Origin: Escherichia phage phiEC1
Sequence record: KY608965.1
Length of the DNA: 64,000 nt
Strand: one strand, 5' to 3'
Shown: one piece after another, positions 11,656 to 39,733 of the stretch
Position numbering within the stretch: position 1 is the first letter of the stretch
How the letters are laid out: the number at the start of each line of letters is the position of its first letter
Program-made: the position numbers and the translations under genes
The notes under the pieces: generated by a model
What the model was told of the DNA's origin: nothing
Databases searched by the model: none
The model's input: only the letters and a program-made list of their open reading frames with translations

Positions 11656-12756
11656 TTACGCTGTGAAGATTTTATCCCACATCGCAACAACTGCATCTCG
11701 GTTATACTTCTTCCATACTGCTTCAGCACGTTTAACTCGAGCTTCGTATGTGTCAGTGAATTCTAATACAGCTTTTGTGTAAAGCGCAACTACTTCTTTC
11801 TTAGGAGTAGAGGAATCAATTTCTACACGCACAGTATCTGGGTCATATTCGAATGTCGCGTGCGGATAATCCTTAAAAACTAACTGAATCACAGGGACAC
11901 CTTTAGAGATGGCTTCAATAGAACTATTCTCTACCGTACCCGTGTCAGGACACGTATTGATAAGTGCTTTAGCTGTTTTAAGACGTTCCATGATTTCACT
12001 GTGTGGAGCATCAATAATAACAGGATATTTAGCTGGTGGTGCCCATTTACTAGGACAGTATCCTGCGCCATTTTCGCCTAGTGCTTTAATCGCTTCAAGA
12101 GCAACATCAGTACGACGCATTTTAGTGTCATAACGTTGTGCACTAATAATCAGATCAGTCGCCGGAAGAACTTCAGGTTTCTCATTCAAACAAATAACCG
12201 GATAATCTTCGGCTTCAAACAACGGATTTGCTCGCCAATAATCATAATCAATTTTGTCAGTCAGACCTGAAGTCATATAACAATATTTACGTTCAAATTC
12301 ACGGAAGGCTTTAGTAGGAGCATAGCTCTTACCACCATTCTTATGAATTTGAATAGTCTGGTCCCAAATTTGAACAATGCCACGAGATACCGGTTCAAAT
12401 GGTGTTGCCATAAAATTCTTATGAACTTTAGAGAGACCTGCGTCTTTAATTGCCTGAACGGTTAGTTTAGTCGGTTCCATAGTAACAACAAAATCGTATT
12501 CATGGATGCCGGCTAGTTCAACAATCTTACGAGCCATAGTATAACTCATACCTAGACTGAATTTAGTCAGATGACCAACAGGATGATGATTAACCTTCCA
12601 ATCACCAAATGTGTCATTATCAAAACCGATATAATCAATATCAGCACCGATGGACACAAGATATTTCAACACATTTAAATGTACTGCTTCAAGACCACCT
12701 TGTACACGTTCTGGGTTAAATGGGACCGCACGAGATGGGATAAACATAACTTTCAT
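11656..12756 (-). CDS. GT-B fold glycosyltransferase (GT4-like); candidate DNA hydroxymethylcytosine glycosyl(arabinosyl)transferase
   Basis: 366 aa; N-terminal MKVMFIPS...GGLEAVHLNVLKYL and C-terminal E.SSIEAISKGVPVIQ resemble the GT4 donor-binding region; located between rIIA and gene 39 where T4 has 60/mobA. Confidence 0.6.
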   Translation of the reverse strand: MKVMFIPSRAVPFNPERVQGGLEAVHLNVLKYLVSIGADIDYIGFDNDTFGDWKVNHHPVGHLTKFSLGMSYTMARKIVELAGIHEYDFVVTMEPTKLTVQAIKDAGLSKVHKNFMATPFEPVSRGIVQIWDQTIQIHKNGGKSYAPTKAFREFERKYCYMTSGLTDKIDYDYWRANPLFEAEDYPVICLNEKPEVLPATDLIISAQRYDTKMRRTDVALEAIKALGENGAGYCPSKWAPPAKYPVIIDAPHSEIMERLKTAKALINTCPDTGTVENSSIEAISKGVPVIQLVFKDYPHATFEYDPDTVRVEIDSSTPKKEVVALYTKAVLEFTDTYEARVKRAEAVWKKYNRDAVVAMWDKIFTA

Positions 12757-24626: not shown

Positions 24627-24794
24627 TTAAAGCTTCTTCACTGACAAAATTTCGTCAGGACCTTCTATAACTTCAACCATACGAAGTTGATTAGTTAAGA
24701 GCTCACACACGAGCTCTTTGTTATAATCTTTAAATAGCTGGTCAATACGTTTCTTATGGGCTTTCTTGAGCTGGCGTTTATTTAAACGAGCCAT
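24627..24794 (-). CDS. hypothetical basic protein (55 aa)
   Basis: ATG overlapping the gene 56 stop as TAATG; below track cutoff. Confidence 0.35.
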   Translation of the reverse strand: MARLNKRQLKKAHKKRIDQLFKDYNKELVCELLTNQLRMVEVIEGPDEILSVKKL

Positions 24795-25315
24795 TAATAA
24801 CCTCGGTCTTGACGTGCGAAATTTTCAGCATTTTTCAAGTAGTAAAGTTTAAAGATTTCTTCTGCTGTAAGACCAAGACCTTGGAACATGTTCAGAACGA
24901 AATGGAGAATATCAATCATCTCAAATTTAATTTCAAGCTGGTCTTCAGGAGACAGTTCATCGATACGACGATTTCGATATTCAACATGTTGTGCTTTCCA
25001 TGGCTTCCATACAGAGCTAGCGGCTTTTTCACCATTGCTCATACCACCAAGTGAAGTCAGCAGTTCACGGAATTCATCATCAATATAATCTTTCTGATTA
25101 CGCAGCCAATCAACAACATCACCAGCAGTAGCCAATTCATCAGGATGTTTGTTATGTTCAGGCTTGTCATTTGCCAGACGAACCTGTAAAGATTTCTGCA
25201 TATCAAGCATTACCTGCAGTGGGTCTTTATCTTCGTGAATCAGAGCATTAAAATAAGCTTCTTCTGCTTTATCAACACCAGAAATAAGTTGTGAACATTC
25301 GTTAAAGTGTGCCAT
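24794..25315 (-). CDS. 56: dCTP pyrophosphatase (dCTPase/dUTPase)
   Basis: Track start is TTG; ATG at 25315 gives MAHFNECSQLISGVDKA..., matching the T4 gp56 N-terminus as recalled; AAGGAAA SD. Confidence 0.9.
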   Translation of the reverse strand: MAHFNECSQLISGVDKAEEAYFNALIHEDKDPLQVMLDMQKSLQVRLANDKPEHNKHPDELATAGDVVDWLRNQKDYIDDEFRELLTSLGGMSNGEKAASSVWKPWKAQHVEYRNRRIDELSPEDQLEIKFEMIDILHFVLNMFQGLGLTAEEIFKLYYLKNAENFARQDRGY

Positions 25316-31919: not shown

Positions 31920-33084
31920 CGAAATCTTCCATTTCGTCAAGGTCGTTTTCAATATCTGCTGCAGACGGAGCATCAGAAGCTTTAACCGGAACTTTAGTTG
32001 TTGCTTTGCAATTAATAAGGTCGTTAACAGCGTCATCAACTTCTTTAATAGAAGAGATAGCACCTAGTTTATATTTAGTTTCAATTGCATCTCGGAAAGG
32101 TTTGTGTTTAAACAAAGGTCCCCAGAATTCTACGCAATCAGTAGCTTTAGCACGCCATGATTTCTCTTCACGAATCATTTCGCCTGTTTCTTCGTCAAGG
32201 AATTCGCGAGCATACCACCCGGCTTTAGGCTTAACTACAAAACCAATTTCAGTTGCCATTTCTAGCAAGCCACTGAATGGGTCGATACCGCCATCAAAAT
32301 TAACTGTGATCGGGAAAGTAGATTTCTCTTTAACTGTACGAGATTTTTCTGCTTTCAACGTGAAGTCATAACCGGTCAATTCTGTACCTTCTTTAACCTG
32401 ACGTTTAGAGATAAAGAATACAGTGTTAGCAGAGTAAAGAATACCTGTACCACCGCCCATAATCTCTTTAGGATATAGTCCGCCGATTTCCATTGCTGTA
32501 TGGTTGATTGCAACACATGGAATATCTTTAATAGTCAGATACGGGGTTACAATACGGAAAAGAGATTTAAGTGCCTTAGCACGAGACATATCACCTACGA
32601 CTTTCTCGTTCAATGCATCTTCGGTTTCTTTCTTAGATGCAGTATTACCGATTGAATCGATAAAGATAATAACTTTATCACCGCGTTCAATTGCATCAAG
32701 CTGATTAGTCATATCAACTTTAAGTTGTTCGACGGACTGAATTGGTGTATGAACTACACGGTCTAAATCAACACCCATTGAACGGAAGTAAGATTCTGAA
32801 GCACCGAATTCTGAGTCATAGAACAAACAGATTGCATCTTTATATTTCTTCATATACGCTGCAACCATAGTTAGTCCAAACAATGTTTTAAAATGTTTAG
32901 AAGGTGCAGCAAAAATAGTCAAGCCTGATTGCAATCCTGCATTCAGAGCACCACCTAGTGCAATATTCAACATCGGAATACGAGTAGGGACTTCATCACG
33001 ATTATTAAACAGCTTAGACTTAGTCAAGTCTGCAGTCATTTTAGAAGTAGAAGCTTTAATCAGACGAGATTTTAAATCAGACAT
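31912..33084 (-). CDS. uvsX: recombinase UvsX (RecA-like)
   Basis: 390 aa; MSDLKSRLIKASTSK... and Walker motifs match T4 UvsX as recalled. Confidence 0.95.
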   Translation of the reverse strand: MSDLKSRLIKASTSKMTADLTKSKLFNNRDEVPTRIPMLNIALGGALNAGLQSGLTIFAAPSKHFKTLFGLTMVAAYMKKYKDAICLFYDSEFGASESYFRSMGVDLDRVVHTPIQSVEQLKVDMTNQLDAIERGDKVIIFIDSIGNTASKKETEDALNEKVVGDMSRAKALKSLFRIVTPYLTIKDIPCVAINHTAMEIGGLYPKEIMGGGTGILYSANTVFFISKRQVKEGTELTGYDFTLKAEKSRTVKEKSTFPITVNFDGGIDPFSGLLEMATEIGFVVKPKAGWYAREFLDEETGEMIREEKSWRAKATDCVEFWGPLFKHKPFRDAIETKYKLGAISSIKEVDDAVNDLINCKATTKVPVKASDAPSAADIENDLDEMEDFDE

Positions 33085-33183
33085 TGTATTTTTCCATAGG
33101 CATCATTATATTTTACTCATGTTTAAAAGATAAGATGATTATATACTAAGAGTTATACAGCATTTAAAACTTTAAACAGGCTC

Positions 33184-33732
33184 TTAACGAGCCCATTTGA
33201 TAATTTCTGTAATCAAATTATTACGTTCGCTTGCATTAAATCCTATAACTTTGTTAGCACCATCATGATTAAGTAATTGATACGTTTGGATTTTGTTATG
33301 AATTGCAAACTCTTCAAAATGTGAAATGACTGTATTAAAACCGAATGAAGACAAAGTAATAAGGTCGTCTTCAAAACTTTCAGTCATTTCATTACGTGTT
33401 AAAATAATTGTGAACACATCATGGTTTTGGCAAAGACGAACATAATCCTGTTCATAAACATCAAGAACCGAGTCCGCATCTTGTCGAATACGTCCATAAA
33501 CCCAGTTACTAATATATCCACGGTCTAACAGATAAATCTTAGTAGGGTCTAAATAATTCAACATCGTTTCGAAACAGCCAACTTCATTTCGAGACTTAAC
33601 ATCGAAACGTCCATCAACTGTTCGTTTAGGGAAATCAATCTTTACATATCTTTCACTAATTTCCATTATGTCATTAATGAAAGTTGTTTTACCGGCATTA
33701 TCCGGGCCGTCTACTAAAATAATTTTAGCCAT
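33184..33732 (-). CDS. P-loop kinase (thymidylate kinase-like fold)
   Basis: 182 aa; Walker A VDGPDNAGKTT and LLDRGYIS (DRY-like) motif; occupies the beta-gt interval of the T4 map. Confidence 0.5.
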   Translation of the reverse strand: MAKIILVDGPDNAGKTTFINDIMEISERYVKIDFPKRTVDGRFDVKSRNEVGCFETMLNYLDPTKIYLLDRGYISNWVYGRIRQDADSVLDVYEQDYVRLCQNHDVFTIILTRNEMTESFEDDLITLSSFGFNTVISHFEEFAIHNKIQTYQLLNHDGANKVIGFNASERNNLITEIIKWAR

Positions 33733-33733
33733 T

Positions 33734-34633
33734 TTATTCCTCGATTACGACATCTTCGTATTTAGGTATATTATACGGCGAAGAAATTAAAGCATTAAAG
33801 TAGATGAACTCACCAAGACCTGGATGGAATACTTCTTCAGGATTTTCGAAATATTGAATCTTCGGACGTCCTTTAAGAATTTGATAGTACTCAGTTTTAG
33901 TTGGATTAAAAATTCGAATCAGCGCTTCTTCAGGATACTTATTTCTGTCGAAGCTATTATTTGGATCGGTTATATAAAGCGGTTGACCTAATTGAATTGC
34001 GCATTCAACCACTTGTTCAAAACGATAACACGGGTCACTAATTCGAAATGGATGAAAAATACCATCTAGATGAATAGGAGCCAAATCACCTACAAGACGC
34101 TGCATGACGGAAGGACGTATAACTTTCTGCGTTACGATAATCTTATTACCATCGGCACCTGCGTTAACCAGCACTTCCTTTTGACGTTCATTCAACACAG
34201 TAGTTTGAAGTGAACGATTAACAGACAACATGTCGGTTTTTAAGAATTCATCAATATAAAAACGTGGTTTATTAGGGTCTGCAGTGATATTGAAATTGAA
34301 TTCTACGTCAAAAGCGCCATCATATCCAGTGATATCTGTGATTAGAAAATCACAATCATAATAAGCAATTAATGAATCAACCACAAATTCATTTTCAGAC
34401 CAAAAATATTTACGAGTGTTATATGCGTTATCTTTATACCATAATGGAACAAACTTAAATTCCGGGAAAAGACGTTCACATTCTTTAATATCAGATGCAT
34501 TACGTGGATATGTAATCACATCACCTGGATTAGCACGGTGCAAATGAAGTTGGAAGTTGCCATCCTTAAGGATAGCATACTGTCCAGTTTCATAAGACCG
34601 CATACTCAAGATAGGTACGCGGAAAATAGCCAT
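33734..34633 (-). CDS. hypothetical protein (299 aa) in the beta-gt interval
   Basis: ATG start; TAATG coupling to the gene 42-like ORF; no similarity to T4 beta-glucosyltransferase recognised. Confidence 0.5.
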   Translation of the reverse strand: MAIFRVPILSMRSYETGQYAILKDGNFQLHLHRANPGDVITYPRNASDIKECERLFPEFKFVPLWYKDNAYNTRKYFWSENEFVVDSLIAYYDCDFLITDITGYDGAFDVEFNFNITADPNKPRFYIDEFLKTDMLSVNRSLQTTVLNERQKEVLVNAGADGNKIIVTQKVIRPSVMQRLVGDLAPIHLDGIFHPFRISDPCYRFEQVVECAIQLGQPLYITDPNNSFDRNKYPEEALIRIFNPTKTEYYQILKGRPKIQYFENPEEVFHPGLGEFIYFNALISSPYNIPKYEDVVIEE

Positions 34634-35349
34634 TAGTCAAGGAATCCTTTAACATAATCAAAATCACGTTCAAACACATGGGCACTTACCATGGTATGAG
34701 TATAATCACCAACTTCTACACCGCATTCGTTAGCGATATAATGAAGTAATTTTCCTTGGAGATAAAAATCCAACTGCATAACAACAGCACAGTTCTGAGA
34801 ACGCATATGGCAGTGGGTATAAAGCTTACCATCACGAATATAATAAGTCACTGAGTCAGTACATGGATATTCAAGTGTTTCGTCCGAATCAAGCAAAGCC
34901 TGATCAGAACTTTCTAGAATTTGGAACACAACTCTTCGAGAGTTAGGTTTCTCTTTAAGTTCTTTTAGAAGAGCTGGTAATTGGGCCACAATGCGAGGAC
35001 CATAGAAAGTGTTGAAGTTCGCAGGCAAAGCATCTGATTTTGGTTTAGAAATGAATTTAGCGACATTAGGATATGCCTTAAACGCTTCTTCTGCATCAGT
35101 ACCACCAGAAATCATAAACTTCCAGAAGTCTTCGGCATATTCATAAGAGATGCGGTTAATACGTGGGTCGGTCATTTTGAACGATGATGGATTGTCAACA
35201 ACTACTGTCATGGACCCGATTTCATTACAACGTCCAATACGAGAATCAGTTACGAATTCCGGGTTTTCTAAAATTTCACGATTGACTGCTTTAAATGCGG
35301 TTTGAAAATCTGCGGCTTTGATATATTTCATTGTGTTATGTTTTCCCAT
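34633..35349 (-). CDS. 42: thymidylate synthase-family pyrimidine C5-modifying enzyme, probable dCMP hydroxymethylase
   Basis: 238 aa; NSRR, YPCT (Pro-Cys nucleophile), HMRSQ and IANECGVEVGDYTHT motifs of the ThyA/dCMP hydroxymethylase fold; Asp (not Asn) in the MQLDFY region suggests cytosine specificity. Confidence 0.55.
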   Translation of the reverse strand: MGKHNTMKYIKAADFQTAFKAVNREILENPEFVTDSRIGRCNEIGSMTVVVDNPSSFKMTDPRINRISYEYAEDFWKFMISGGTDAEEAFKAYPNVAKFISKPKSDALPANFNTFYGPRIVAQLPALLKELKEKPNSRRVVFQILESSDQALLDSDETLEYPCTDSVTYYIRDGKLYTHCHMRSQNCAVVMQLDFYLQGKLLHYIANECGVEVGDYTHTMVSAHVFERDFDYVKGFLD

Positions 35350-35391
35350 GTTTACCTCAATACAATTTATTATATACTCAATTCATAAAGC

Positions 35392-35631
35392 TTATTTGAA
35401 TTTCTTGGCAATGTTGATATAACGTAAAGCTTCAGAATCTATACTTCCAAGAACACTATGAAGAAATGCATCAGCGTAGTATTCCAATTGAACAGGTTCT
35501 TTAATCACTTTAGCCGCTTTGGTTTCAAACAGGCCCATCAGGGCCTTTTTAAGAATTTGTTCATTAGTGTTCAGTTTTATAGTCAAAATCTCTTCATTAA
35601 GTTGGTGGTTAAAAGTTTTTCTAGAAATCAT
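35392..35631 (-). CDS. hypothetical protein (79 aa)
   Basis: ATG start; ATGA coupling to the upstream ORF. Confidence 0.45.
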   Translation of the reverse strand: MISRKTFNHQLNEEILTIKLNTNEQILKKALMGLFETKAAKVIKEPVQLEYYADAFLHSVLGSIDSEALRYINIAKKFK

Positions 35632-36797
35632 TCCGGGTACCTCAAAGCGTCATCAGAGTTAGTTATATCAATAATAGATATAGAGTTTTCTGATAACCCA
35701 TTTTTAGATAACTGACGTTTATAATATCTTTCACAATATGTACACGTCGTCCCGCAGATTTCATTAGCACAATCGAAATCTGGATGTCTGAACCACCTTT
35801 TTTCTAAAAAGCCATCTAACAAAGAGGTTTCAATATTTACTGTATGTGAAAACTCAGTTTCGTTTTCAAGAGTGAAAATAGTCTCTAAAGGCTTCCACAG
35901 TTCTAACAAATTACCTTCAAACTTTTCAGAAGCGTATGCTTCAAGAACTTTCAAAATGTAGTCTGTGCTACCTGTACGTCCTGAAACTTTGAATTGAGTG
36001 ATACCAATATCATTATAAAGTTTCAAATCTTGAGGACGAACAAAACGAGTTCTCAACCAGTTAAATGGGTCTGTATCACGAGCTTTAATACAGTGCTGCA
36101 TAGGATATCCGTTTAAGGATTTAGCATCATCAGCTGTAACATCAGTACTATGGAAAATATAGCAAGAGTCACGATAGCTACAATGTGTTGTATACCCTTT
36201 ACCAGCATTAGAACAGAACTCATTTACAAGAACTTCAAATATTATATTGTTCTTATTGCAAAACTCTGCTGCACGCTTCAGGAAAGAAACTGAACGGTTC
36301 TTATGAATTCCGCAACAGACTTTTTTGATGTTATATTGGTCGTGCAAGTATTTGATTTGAGTTACGGCATCAACATGTAGAATTGTTGAAACTTCAATCT
36401 CAATATCTTTATTGACTTCACGAACAATTTCCATAACAACAGGGTTAGCGATAGTAATACGCCATACGCCTATTGACCAAAGATACTGAACATAATCCTG
36501 AATAGCTTTCTTCTTCCACTCAACTAGTTCTCTTTTTGAACCAGGATTTATCGTGTTGAGTGTATAGTTAAAGCAAATACCTAATTCGTTACAACGTTTA
36601 ACGTAGTCTTCTAACATCTTTTTGTCAACGTCAGGAAGCCTAAAATCAGGTCTGGCTGCTACAAAAGCCATTTCTCTTGTAGAGCCATATACTTCGTTTA
36701 TCAAGCTATTAGGATAGGTTTTATTGAGCTCTACGATTTTATCAAGAAGAGCTAAATCAAAATTCGTTCCGATTTTAAAAGTATTCATTTTTTGCAT
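35628..36797 (-). CDS. Cys-rich enzyme of unknown family (389 aa; possible TIM-barrel sugar isomerase/epimerase-like or U32-like Fe-S protein)
   Basis: N-terminal FKIGTNFD...; C-terminal cluster DFDCANEICGTTCTYCERYY; family assignment is tentative. Confidence 0.35.
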   Translation of the reverse strand: MQKMNTFKIGTNFDLALLDKIVELNKTYPNSLINEVYGSTREMAFVAARPDFRLPDVDKKMLEDYVKRCNELGICFNYTLNTINPGSKRELVEWKKKAIQDYVQYLWSIGVWRITIANPVVMEIVREVNKDIEIEVSTILHVDAVTQIKYLHDQYNIKKVCCGIHKNRSVSFLKRAAEFCNKNNIIFEVLVNEFCSNAGKGYTTHCSYRDSCYIFHSTDVTADDAKSLNGYPMQHCIKARDTDPFNWLRTRFVRPQDLKLYNDIGITQFKVSGRTGSTDYILKVLEAYASEKFEGNLLELWKPLETIFTLENETEFSHTVNIETSLLDGFLEKRWFRHPDFDCANEICGTTCTYCERYYKRQLSKNGLSENSISIIDITNSDDALRYPE

Positions 36798-36844
36798 CTC
36801 GCGTTAATTGATGCGATGGTTTTTTGCAGGTCTTACTTAAATTA

Positions 36845-37231
36845 TTATAGATTCGGTTTATATGATTTAAATGTTTCGAATTCGCCTTTATTCATAAGAG
36901 CTTTGAATTCGTCAGGACGCATAGCTTTGTCGTCGATAATCCAATCATATACTGGTTTATGTGTTAGCAAATTATGATACTTCAAACCAATGTTTTCCAA
37001 GTTCTGAATCAGACTTGGGAGAATGTCAATTGCTATACGTCCAGGACCTACTGACTTCATACCGCGTGCAGTATAAAGCGTTATAGTATGCCCTGCATCA
37101 TACAGGGCATTAATGGCGGTCACCATTTCGACGTCTGGTTTGAAGTTCACATAATCACGATTGTTATTCCACTCTGTTATACAATCATCGACATCAAAAC
37201 AAAGATTAAGCATGTTTTCTACACGGTGCAT
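36845..37231 (-). CDS. HAD-superfamily phosphatase
   Basis: Start set to ATG at 37231 (TAATG coupling); HAD motif I FDVDDCI near the N-terminus and a C-terminal DD pair. Confidence 0.55.
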   Translation of the reverse strand: MHRVENMLNLCFDVDDCITEWNNNRDYVNFKPDVEMVTAINALYDAGHTITLYTARGMKSVGPGRIAIDILPSLIQNLENIGLKYHNLLTHKPVYDWIIDDKAMRPDEFKALMNKGEFETFKSYKPNL

Positions 37232-38916
37232 TAGATTCGTTCCCATTGATGAGTGATATCGCCACCGATTGGACGATAGGAAACACCAGTTTCTTTATCA
37301 GTTAGTACCCATTTACCAGGATTTTTTGTAATCAGAGTAGCCGTTACAGGTTCTGCTACGTCATAACTAATAGAGCCGTCTTGAAGTACACGGCCCATGT
37401 TACGTAATTGCTTAGTCAGAAGTTCCATACCTTTATAATATGCGGCAACCGCTTTAAGTGGATTATTCTTGAAATAACCACCTAATGCAATCCAAATAAT
37501 TGCTACAGCCAAATGATGATACTCGTTAAACGAACTCATCTTTCCATATTTGTAAACTAATGGATTGATGTTAATAGTCACATTACAAGTTGTTTCATCA
37601 ATAGTAAACTGTCCCCAGGTCGGATTAGCATTGAATTCATCATAACCTGAAACAGCATAAAGCACTTTAGCTTCATCATACAATTTTGGCCCGTAAATCT
37701 TGGTTTCACCAAAATATCCACGAGGGTCGATAAACTTGACTTCGCCGTTATCAGTAATCATAGTATTACTGAAGTTTGGGTCACCGTGAATAACAGAGTA
37801 CTGTCCCTGAGAACGGTTATGATAACGAATAAGATGTTCTAAAGCTTGTTTCAACATTGGCTTCAGACGTCCAATCTTAGTGTAGTTCACGTGTGTGATT
37901 TTACCAAATGAATCAATCAATGGCTGAATGCTTTCACAACGATCAATAACTTTCGTATAGAACTCTTTAGTGAAATCACGGCGAACAGTTTCAGGACTTA
38001 CAAAATAAGTGTCTGTGCTGAATTTCAGTGCATCTAAAATTGCATCAACAATTTGTGGACGAGCAAGACTTGATTTGGATTTAATATATTCAAATGCCGG
38101 CTTACCTTTAATACGTTCCATTTCAAAATTATTTTCATTTACCGAAACTAACTGAGGAACTGAATCTGATTTCACTTTCAAATACCATGAAATCTCATCT
38201 TTTTGAAGAGCTCGACCTTGTTCGGTTAACGCGAATTTAGTTACAGTTTCTTCGCCAATTTCAACTGCATTAAAACTACGATTAAGTTCACGAACTTCAT
38301 GAGCTTTTTCAAGTTTAGGCATATCACCTAAATCAATTAGATTCATAAGCTCTGATTTATTGAATGCACTGCCGTAAAGGAATTCTACGAAATCACGTCC
38401 TTTGCAGTATTCGTGAATTTCCTCGTCAGTAGAACCCATGTAGAATTCCCAGTCTTTGAACTGATAAATTCCTACAACATTACCGCCTGTTGAACCTACG
38501 TTAGTGATATTTTCACCATCGAAATTATATCGACATTCATCACCCTTAACATAGATTGCGTTAACATTCCAAGACCATGAACCAAAATCAGGAATAATAT
38601 CACACCAGTTAACAATTACATTATGGCCATCTAAATCTTTGTATAATTTAGCAAGAGCATAAGCAGAACCATACGCTTCATCAACTGTACGAATAGTCAC
38701 ATTGAACCCTTCTTGCTCACAATAAGCTCGAACAGTTTCAGCAAATTTTGAATGAACTACTACAATAATTTCATCTGCGCCAAGGTCAGAATAAATTGTA
38801 TACAAATTGCTCAGAATAGTGTCTTGCTTATAGTTCACAAGAACTTTTGGAATATGGTGAGTAATTGGATATAAACGAGTTGCCAATCCAGCACCAAGAA
38901 TAACAGCTTTTTTCAT
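37231..38916 (-). CDS. bifunctional sugar-1-phosphate nucleotidyltransferase (RmlA/MurU-like, N-terminal) / anomeric sugar kinase (APH/AmgK-like, C-terminal)
   Basis: 561 aa; N-terminal KAVILGAGLATRLYPIT (G-x-G-T-R-x-x-P-x-T nucleotidyltransferase signature); C-terminal HGDPNFSN and FIDPRG kinase catalytic-loop motifs. Confidence 0.65.
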   Translation of the reverse strand: MKKAVILGAGLATRLYPITHHIPKVLVNYKQDTILSNLYTIYSDLGADEIIVVVHSKFAETVRAYCEQEGFNVTIRTVDEAYGSAYALAKLYKDLDGHNVIVNWCDIIPDFGSWSWNVNAIYVKGDECRYNFDGENITNVGSTGGNVVGIYQFKDWEFYMGSTDEEIHEYCKGRDFVEFLYGSAFNKSELMNLIDLGDMPKLEKAHEVRELNRSFNAVEIGEETVTKFALTEQGRALQKDEISWYLKVKSDSVPQLVSVNENNFEMERIKGKPAFEYIKSKSSLARPQIVDAILDALKFSTDTYFVSPETVRRDFTKEFYTKVIDRCESIQPLIDSFGKITHVNYTKIGRLKPMLKQALEHLIRYHNRSQGQYSVIHGDPNFSNTMITDNGEVKFIDPRGYFGETKIYGPKLYDEAKVLYAVSGYDEFNANPTWGQFTIDETTCNVTININPLVYKYGKMSSFNEYHHLAVAIIWIALGGYFKNNPLKAVAAYYKGMELLTKQLRNMGRVLQDGSISYDVAEPVTATLITKNPGKWVLTDKETGVSYRPIGGDITHQWERI

Positions 38917-38957
38917 GTTGAAGTCCTCATTGGTAAGTAGGTGTATTGTACACTATT

Positions 38958-39101
38958 CTAGTTAAAGCATTCATACTTTGCTTGTAGTCCAATCATAATC
39001 CATCCAATTACAAGTGTTGGAATCATTACTGGAGCCGTTAAGCTCCAGTAGATAGTCATGACAAGCATCAATAGTAAAAGTCCTATTGTTATTGCTTTCA
39101 T
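38958..39101 (-). CDS. small membrane peptide (47 aa)
   Basis: ATGA-coupled to the SIS gene stop; single hydrophobic helix; below track cutoff. Confidence 0.35.
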   Translation of the reverse strand: MKAITIGLLLLMLVMTIYWSLTAPVMIPTLVIGWIMIGLQAKYECFN

Positions 39102-39733
39102 TGTTCGCCTCGTAACATGGCACCTAGTGCACCGCCTGGATGGAACTTAAGGAAGTCATTAGAGGTAAATCCACGTTCAGACGAAAGGTTGATAGCAAAC
39201 GTATCGATAAGCGCTAACAACAATGTAGTGGACATGGTCGGAGCCAGAGAATTCTCGTCAACCTCTACCGCGATACCGGTACAGAACGTATAATCAAAAA
39301 GAGCTTCGTATTCTTGCGGAATGTCAGGGTTACAATGTAACAGAATCTGTTTAACCTGAGGACGAATCATACGAAGATGTTTAGCAACACCTATCATTTC
39401 TTCAGTCTTACCAGAACGACTGATGTGAACTAATACATCATTGGGTGCAATAAATCCTGCATCCCCATGAGAATAATGCCCAGTGTTCAAGTACATACTC
39501 GGGATACCGAGTGAAGCAAAAGTCTCTGAAGCTTTAGTTGCGATATTAGCGTTCTTACCAACACCTGTAATAATTACACGACTTTCATAATTACTCAGTC
39601 CAGGGCGACGAAGAGTTTCAAGAATAACATTATATCGGGCAGAGTTTTGACTAATTACTTTAGCCATAGTGGCAAGAGATGAAGCTTGTTTTACGATTGC
39701 GTCAATAGCGATAGTGATTGGTGTAGTTTTCAT
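39098..39733 (-). CDS. SIS-domain sugar-phosphate isomerase (arabinose-5-phosphate isomerase KdsD/GutQ-like catalytic domain, no CBS domains)
   Basis: 211 aa; ITGVGKNANIA, HGDAGFIAP, ISRSGKTEE, LAPTMSTT and HPGGALG motifs characteristic of KdsD-type SIS domains. Confidence 0.7.
   Translation of the reverse strand: MKTTPITIAIDAIVKQASSLATMAKVISQNSARYNVILETLRRPGLSNYESRVIITGVGKNANIATKASETFASLGIPSMYLNTGHYSHGDAGFIAPNDVLVHISRSGKTEEMIGVAKHLRMIRPQVKQILLHCNPDIPQEYEALFDYTFCTGIAVEVDENSLAPTMSTTLLLALIDTFAINLSSERGFTSNDFLKFHPGGALGAMLRGEQ

Follow-up and report, generated by a model that had tools for sequence, protein, structure and literature searches.

The 64,000-nucleotide stretch of Escherichia phage phiEC1 (sequence record KY608965.1), hereafter the window, carries at positions 34633-35349 of its minus strand a gene for a divergent relative of thymidylate synthase (TS). 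An initial annotation, made from the letters of the window, had described the product as a TS-family enzyme with a cytosine-type specificity residue, unusually dissimilar to gp42 of phage T4, and had cautioned against assuming which base modification it makes. In the open reading frame (ORF) listing of the window the gene is an ATG-start frame of 238 amino acids that fills exactly these coordinates, and its stop shares one nucleotide with the start of the next gene (TAATG). The gene and the elements belonging to it are the following.

35355..35391, minus strand: upstream signals of the gene, with GAGG at 35355-35358, TATAAT at 35369-35374 and the MotA-box-like AAGCTTTA
34633..35349, minus strand: almost certainly a hydroxylase of deoxycytidine monophosphate (dCMP) at position 5, that is a synthase of 5-hydroxy-dCMP (5hodCMP), on a TS fold; ortholog of RB69 gp48 and HY126 AfhB (homology, structure match, PMC13326640)
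Key residues of this protein: R138/R139, E160, C163, R183/S184, N186, V190, D194, H224

The GAGG element is a Shine-Dalgarno sequence lying 5 nt 5' of the ATG. Just 5' of the gene, AAGCTTTA, with GCTTTA at 35386-35391, resembles a MotA box and is separated by 11 nt from the TATAAT -10 element; judged by consensus, the two elements together could form a T4-type middle promoter for the gene. A generic scan for sigma-70 promoters and terminators gave nothing above chance. The 238-residue protein is matched by Pfam PF00303 (Thymidylat_synt; E=1.2e-15, 57.8 bits against a cut-off of 24.3), and this match is confined to residues 120-235. None of the NCBIfam ThyA equivalog models reached its cut-off (at most 50.8 bits against 108-427), and the best NCBIfam ThyA score came from the archaeal model TIGR03283, with 72.2 bits against a cut-off of 174.55. 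Such low scores, together with the partial PF00303 match, indicate that the protein is, as judged from its sequence, a divergent member of the TS superfamily and not a ThyA.

The closest relatives of this protein have been characterised very recently. It is identical to RB69 gp48 at 236 of 238 residues, the differences being N53 (T in RB69) and V121 (A in RB69). A sequence search of the PDB returned three entries of 234-238 residues with about 98% identity, namely 9iqc and 9ir2 (both E=8.8e-161) and 9iqu (1.9e-157), followed by ordinary ThyA and MilA at approximately 1e-11 to 1e-12. Entry 9iqc is titled "Monooxygenase dependent on riboflavin with dCMP and FAD" and 9iqu "phage HY126 dCMP hydroxylase-AfhB with substrate dCMP", both released on 2025-07-16. 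An AlphaFold2 (AF2) model built from a 61-sequence alignment reached a predicted local distance difference test score (pLDDT) of 87.3, a single-sequence model with pLDDT 33 being discarded, and in Foldseek it matched 9iqc with a template modelling (TM) score of 0.94 and also 9iqu. The next fold match after the AfhB entries was MilA, at 24% identity and TM 0.83, and structures of T4 gp42 were absent from the best 60 PDB sequence matches and the best 50 fold matches. The TS-family fold of the initial annotation is thus borne out by the PF00303 match, by the catalytic Pro-Cys (C163) and by the superposition of the model.

For RB69 gp48, and for gp80 of Acinetobacter phage DLP3, Lee et al. (Nucleic Acids Research, NAR, 2026; bioRxiv June 2025) reported the formation of 5-hydroxy-deoxycytidine (5-hydroxy-dC, 5hodC; 243 Da) in Escherichia coli DNA (PMC13326640). 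In the same work the 18O of 18O2 ended up in the product of RB69 gp48, enzyme preparations were yellow and the RB69 gp48 preparation released flavin mononucleotide (FMN), and RB69 DNA was found to contain mono- and di-arabinosyl-5-hydroxycytosine with an ether linkage at C5 (PMC13326640). That paper cites He et al. (Nat Chem Biol 2026) for a flavin-bound crystal structure and an in-vitro reconstitution of the HY126 enzyme. We conclude that the product of the gene is almost certainly a C5-monooxygenase of dCMP that depends on flavin, has the TS fold and is orthologous to RB69 gp48 and HY126 AfhB. Flavin binding and O2-dependent formation of 5hodCMP would carry over to this protein from orthologs that are 98-99% identical. 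The hydroxylase function as such is already known, as orthologs were characterised and crystallised in 2025-2026. RB69 gp48 and HY126 AfhB (PDB 9IQC, 9IR2, 9IQU), at 99% and about 98% identity over all 238 residues, have the same residues at the signature positions set out below, the same gene neighbourhood and the same phage genus; there are two substitutions relative to the former and five relative to the latter, none of them at signature positions.

The active site was compared in an alignment (A1) of this protein with E. coli ThyA, T4 gp42 and the homologs of Acinetobacter phage AbTZA1, Rhizobium phage RL38J1 and Xanthomonas phage Xp15. This comparison with gp42 and ThyA, proposed in the initial annotation as a check, placed the catalytic cysteine and the cytosine-type aspartate and revealed a further substitution. 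The Pro-Cys pair is residues 162-163, with C163 opposite C146 of ThyA and C148 of gp42 and invariant across our alignments A1, A2 and A4. Residues R138/R139, R183/S184 and H224 correspond to ThyA R126/R127, R166/S167 and H207, so that the nucleotide-binding arginines, serine and histidine are all kept. D194 stands opposite ThyA N177 and gp42 D179, and the cytosine-type Asp that had been read from the letters is therefore confirmed. The C-terminal segment IANECGVEVGDYTHT, likewise noticed as ThyA-like, pairs with MAQQCDLEVGDFVWT of E. coli ThyA in A1 and with IAKECGLEVGEFVHT of Staphylococcus aureus ThyA. E160 takes the place of ThyA L143 (L143E), N186 that of D169 (D169N) and V190 that of G173 (G173V). 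The 'RSxD' of ThyA and gp42 is here R183-S184-Q185-N186-C187, with Asn replacing Asp, and a motif search found no literal RS..D in the protein; the initial annotation had assumed an intact RS..D motif and for this reason overlooked N186. Its caution about the product stood, while the motif was mis-stated and the flavin and O2 hydroxylation chemistry was not identified.

The replacement at position 169 (ThyA numbering, as used below for positions 143, 146, 169, 173 and 177) may bear on the choice of cofactor. In folate-dependent TS, D169 hydrogen-bonds to N3-H and the 2-NH2 group of the pterin. An isoalloxazine offers an N3-H / C=O edge instead, with which the carboxamide of Asn could plausibly pair. 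In the study of Lee et al., D169N served as the residue that separates hydroxylases from hydroxymethylases, and was validated as a diagnostic signature with nine further homologs (PMC13326640). A clade-specific change of E58 to F, suggested by a first alignment, was dropped, since a second alignment puts E there; positions in the N-terminal half shift between alignments and no claims rest on them.

What weighs against the hydroxylase assignment is limited. The allele of the window differs from the assayed RB69 enzyme at the two residues named above, and its activity would follow from near-identity; the physiological flavin varies by source, being FMN in the RB69 preparation and 'riboflavin' together with flavin adenine dinucleotide (FAD) in the PDB title; and public annotations read dCMP hydroxymethylase or thymidylate synthase. 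Nothing in the sequence itself counts against hydroxylation. The usual GenBank label, which is also the 2018 model for RB69, would make the protein a classical folate-dependent dCMP hydroxymethylase of the T4 gp42 type, whose 5-hydroxymethyl-dCMP is then arabinosylated. Several features invite that label: the gene sits in the slot of gp42 in T4, between uvsX and gene 43, the two proteins share the TS fold, the catalytic cysteine (C146), the cytosine Asp (N177D), an acidic residue at position 143 and a short C-terminus, and the pathway logic is the same, dCMP being modified before replication and sugar being added after; records read 'deoxycytidylate 5-hydroxymethyltransferase', and PHROG 160 holds both proteins. 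However, identity to gp42 is just 25% (54/218, E=7e-13), compared with 68% between the adjacent UvsX and T4 UvsX, and the low similarity to gp42 relative to the neighbouring genes, pointed out in the initial annotation, is thereby upheld by alignment. The folate-contacting Asp169 and Gly173, which are kept in gp42 (RSND...G), MilA and ThyA, have become N and V here, and where gp42 uses methylenetetrahydrofolate (CH2-THF) and water to add CH2OH, the hydroxylase uses flavin and O2 to add OH. In one and the same assay T4 gp42 gave 5-hydroxymethyl-deoxycytidine (5hmdC), whereas RB69 gp48, 99% identical to our protein, gave 5hodC and not ordinary dCMP hydroxymethylase product, with its oxygen taken from O2 (PMC13326640), so that refraining from assuming a hydroxymethyl product was well advised. 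The 2018 assignment of arabinosyl-hydroxymethylcytosine to RB69 DNA is called erroneous in later papers (PMC13326640, PMC13390438). A hydroxymethylase has already been refuted for the orthologs and is very improbable for the protein of the window.

Still less credible is an ordinary thymidylate synthase converting dUMP to dTMP, although PF00303 matches and many database records carry that name. The Asn177 that specifies dUMP has been replaced by Asp, some 50 residues at the C-terminus of ThyA have no counterpart, the NCBIfam ThyA models score far under their cut-offs, and dCMP is bound in the solved ortholog structures. With E. coli ThyA the protein has in common the fold, C146, R126/R127, R166/S167, H207, Y94 and the EVGD[FY] segment; it differs by the substitutions N177D, L143E, D169N and G173V and by the lack of a C-terminal folate-closing tail, at approximately 21% identity. 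That the enzyme of this phage forms another C5 derivative of dCMP, for example a methyl derivative, or acts on a different nucleotide, might be imagined from the chemical versatility of TS-superfamily enzymes and from the S, C, H and D variants at position 169 within the clade, but we give it very little credence: the canonical E-N-V-D signature is present and neither of the two residues that differ from the assayed RB69 enzyme is a signature residue. Outside the hydroxylase clade the closest solved structure is the CMP hydroxymethylase MilA (PDB 5JNH, 5B6D; Foldseek E=1.3e-18, full-length alignment), which is cytosine-specific like the hydroxylase and, unlike it, folate-dependent and active on a ribonucleotide.

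For flavin-dependent hydroxylation of dCMP a mechanism can be outlined. The orthologs bind both dCMP and flavin and form 5hodCMP with an oxygen atom drawn from O2 (PMC13326640, PDB titles). As is general in the TS family, the cysteine, here Cys163, would add to C6 of the substrate dCMP, with Asp194 selecting cytosine; the activated, nucleophilic C5 would then attack a flavin hydroperoxide instead of the methylene/iminium of CH2-THF, and elimination of the cysteine would restore the pyrimidine and yield 5hodCMP. Around this step, the dCTPase gp56 would supply dCMP and remove dCTP, kinases would take 5hodCMP to 5hodCTP for insertion by the phage polymerase, and two arabinosyltransferases would add arabinofuranose from UDP-arabinose (UDP-Ara), which the products of the neighbouring isomerase, kinase/pyrophosphorylase and phosphatase genes would provide. 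The expected end product is DNA containing 5-arabinosyl-hydroxycytosine and resistant to restriction enzymes. In this enzyme class the TS fold has exchanged folate for flavin and oxygenates its substrate, an activity that underlies a widespread anti-restriction hypermodification of DNA. Since the enzyme was published in 2025-2026, the window adds one more near-identical allele.

We also surveyed how far the signature extends among TS homologs. In a search of 5.8 billion proteins the 120 best clusters (53-98% identity) all have E143-C146-N169-V173-D177. Another 50 loci from IMG/VR were retrieved with the pattern [HF]MRSQN[CM], and the conservation of N169 among them is accordingly circular. When HMMER was run over the full library, which holds 1.84 billion representatives, it gave 2816 matches at E<=1e-3; from the best 150 of these, 134 (at least 180 aa) were aligned, one of which did not align at the positions in question, and the other 133 were classed by positions 143-169-173-177. 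The type of the present protein, E-N-[V/T/I/L/M]-D, comprises 69 representatives, and the D-D-G-D type of gp42, MilA and Xp15 comprises 39, MilA being placed in it by presumption. S169 with non-Gly173 and D177 occurs in 15 representatives (12 with E143, three with D143), C169 with E143 and non-Gly173 in five, H169 with E143 and non-Gly173 in two, and D169 with E143 and V173 in five; two more members have N169 and another residue at 143 or 177, one is G-D-G-D, and one is a misaligned or truncated sequence. Among the cytosine-type homologs, those without Asp169 tend also to have Glu143 and to have exchanged Gly173 (for V, T, I or L), which suggests that a diagnostic resting on D169N by itself may be too narrow; the S, C, H and D169 forms may be under-called hydroxylases, or may make other products.

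Some of these homologs are fused to other domains. A hydroxylase-type TS domain is found C-terminally fused to a histidine-phosphatase (His_Phos_1) in four proteins of 427-463 aa (P0244, P0246, P0247 and P0251), and to a MazG pyrophosphohydrolase in one of 341 aa (P0282); with MazG attached, hydrolysis of dCTP could be coupled to the hydroxylation of dCMP, which would fit the pathway. In Xanthomonas phage Xp15 (L006, 2935-3756) the D-D-G-D homolog has genes for a dCMP deaminase and a Nol-like carbamoyltransferase as neighbours, and is possibly part of a different pyrimidine hypermodification cluster.

The signature E143/N169/non-Gly173/D177 separates hydroxylase from hydroxymethylase cleanly, which is of practical value for annotation. 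Orthologs are labelled in public records as thymidylate synthase, as dCMP hydroxymethylase or deoxycytidylate 5-hydroxymethyltransferase, or as hypothetical, and with T4 gp42 and the hydroxylase merged in PHROG 160, automated annotation mislabels the type of modification.

Over positions 33000-39000 the window is 98% identical at the DNA level to members of Mosigvirus, the genus of RB69 (for example ATK47, O157 typing phages 3 and 6, p000v and phiC120), and all cytosine-arabinosylation genes of RB69 are found in the window with 94-100% protein identity. The genes that surround the hydroxylase gene or belong to its pathway are listed below.

11656..12756, minus strand: DNA arabinosyltransferase 2, 99% identical to RB69p003
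24794..25315, minus strand: gp56 dCTPase, 99% identical to RB69p028
33184..33732, minus strand: thymidylate-kinase-like nucleotide kinase (RB69 gp45), by homology
33734..34633, minus strand: DNA arabinosyltransferase 1 (RB69 gp46:47), one uninterrupted ORF of 299 aa, in translational coupling with the hydroxylase gene (PMC13326640 Table 1)
35392..35631, minus strand: gp49, 79 aa, phrog_8601
35628..36797, minus strand: gp50, U32-family iron-sulphur (Fe-S) protein (PF01136)
36845..37246, minus strand: gp51, HAD-type sugar phosphatase (HY126 AfhF analogue); the RB69 annotation starts at 37231
37231..38916, minus strand: bifunctional arabinose-phosphate kinase / UDP-arabinose pyrophosphorylase (RB69 gp52:53, HY126 AfhE analogue), an intact 561-aa ORF
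38958-39068: gp54
39098..39733, minus strand: arabinose-5-phosphate isomerase (RB69 gp55), KpsF/GutQ family, E=8.5e-32

The splits of gp46:47 and gp52:53 in the RB69 reference (ORF046/047 and ORF052/053) have been attributed to sequencing error (PMC13326640), and the single intact frames of 299 and 561 aa in the window support that view. No second gp42-like gene and no homologue of the T4 beta-glucosyltransferase was found within the window, the neighbour of the hydroxylase gene being an arabinosyltransferase of the RB69 type.

The gene for gp50 lies approximately 280 nt upstream of the hydroxylase gene and opens a second line of inquiry. Its product matches Peptidase_U32 (PF01136) with E=7.4e-11; it is called a 'sugar or heterocycle reductase' in the table of the NAR paper (PMC13326640), and a BASEL record labels it "putative enzyme involved in UDP-arabinose biosynthesis". 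Searching the PDB by sequence with gp50 returned nothing. The U32 family includes several hydroxylases: RlhA is the 5-hydroxycytidine synthase of 23S rRNA and needs Fe-S clusters and prephenate (PMC5727448), TrhP is a prephenate-dependent hydroxylase forming ho5U in tRNA, paired with the O2-dependent TrhO (PMC6599085), and for UbiU and UbiV prephenate is the oxygen donor under anoxia (PMC10990095). In hhalign a profile of 41 phage-type U32 proteins matched RlhA best (E=2e-5 over 203 columns), followed by TrhP (2.5e-3) and UbiU (7.8e-3). The discussion of the NAR paper notes that RNA hydroxylation pathways use no homologs of the TS-like enzyme (PMC13326640).

The cysteines of gp50 are well conserved. 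C161, C195, C206, C212 and C236 are invariant in 121 gp50 homologs, and of the four canonical U32 cysteine positions two align in gp50 (C206 or C195, and C212) while the other two do not. A C-terminal motif C343-x4-C348-x3-C352-x2-C355 (DCANEICGTTCTYC, residues 343-355) is invariant in the 121 phage-type U32 proteins and does not occur in E. coli RlhA, TrhP, UbiU or UbiV; its last three cysteines are spaced like the CxxxCx(aromatic)C cysteines that hold radical-SAM clusters. The segment DCANEICGTTCTYC is probably a second Fe-S site, and the number of cysteines in gp50 suffices for two Fe-S clusters.

The genomic context supplies a further element, as a chorismate mutase gene separates the U32 gene from the hydroxylase gene in 14 of the 18 U32-positive loci, including that of Serratia phage LC53, and in none of the U32-negative loci. 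Eight ORFs tested against PF01817 (chorismate mutase) scored 36-50 bits against a cut-off of 27.

Loci of the U32/chorismate mutase observation: L008, L010-L017, L023, L024, L026, L027, L033, L051

Chorismate mutase is absent from the window itself, where gp49 takes up the space between the two genes. The gp49 protein has no cysteine, and its start overlaps the stop of the U32 gene by 4 nt (ATGA), so that the two are translationally coupled; it was seen in U32-positive loci only (7 of 18), and in some genera it precedes chorismate mutase. That gp49 might be a diverged chorismate mutase was rejected, given no Pfam or NCBIfam match, a negative BLAST and an hhalign probability of 0.9%, and a gp49-like N-terminus on the LC53 chorismate mutase was set aside as resting on 8 residues only.

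Taken with the precedent of TrhO and TrhP, in which an O2-dependent hydroxylase and a prephenate-dependent U32 hydroxylase serve one pyrimidine C5 position (PMC6599085, PMC5727448), these features allow the tentative proposal that gp50 hydroxylates cytosine at position 5, in dCMP or in DNA, with prephenate and independently of O2, and that the TS-fold enzyme is only the aerobic half of a dual system; we consider this rather unlikely. From the precedent and from RlhA, gp50 departs in aligning at only two of the four canonical U32 cysteine positions and in its extra C-terminal cysteine cluster. Counted in favour of the dual route is the absence of the U32 gene from hydroxylase-carrying phages of Acinetobacter, Pseudomonas and Rhizobium; Acinetobacter phage DLP3 and Rhizobium phage RL38J1 make glycosylated 5-hydroxycytosine (5hoC) (PMC13326640), and in air the pathway can therefore do without U32. 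Against a dual route stand the JS98-like coliphages without U32, which also defeat a strict rule by which U32 presence would follow aerobic or anaerobic hosts. The occupation of the Mosigvirus slot by gp49, unrelated to chorismate mutase, and the published reductase label of gp50 count against it as well. If the dual route were true, phages of facultative anaerobes would have a way to 5-hydroxycytosine even in the gut, whose lack of oxygen keeps gp48, an enzyme that needs O2, from working. The U32 neighbour, with or without chorismate mutase, could then yield new biology concerning O2-dependent DNA modification in anaerobic hosts. In the literature searched, which did not extend to He et al. 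2026 and Mahler et al. 2025, no link between U32 hydroxylases and the phage gene was found, and to that extent the U32/chorismate mutase lead is, as far as we know, new.

Metagenomes commonly contain U32 proteins with 50-58% identity to gp50. On phage-like contigs of 52-466 kb the U32 gene belongs to replication and nucleotide-metabolism modules, beside genes for dCMP deaminase, a thymidylate-kinase-like protein, uracil-DNA glycosylase (UDG), PolIII-alpha and DNA polymerase, and a radical SAM gene is among its neighbours; no TS-like, chorismate mutase or gp49 gene was found within 6-8 kb of U32 on those contigs.

U32-bearing large contigs: L059 (466-kb JGI contig), L060, L061, L066-L068

These large contigs may carry an unknown pyrimidine modification, and their setting of U32 without a TS-like gene is counted as support for the dual route. 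On one of them, however, a gene of the DAHP/KDO8P-synthase family and an epimerase gene adjoin U32, which could mean sugar chemistry instead and is another observation that speaks against the dual route.

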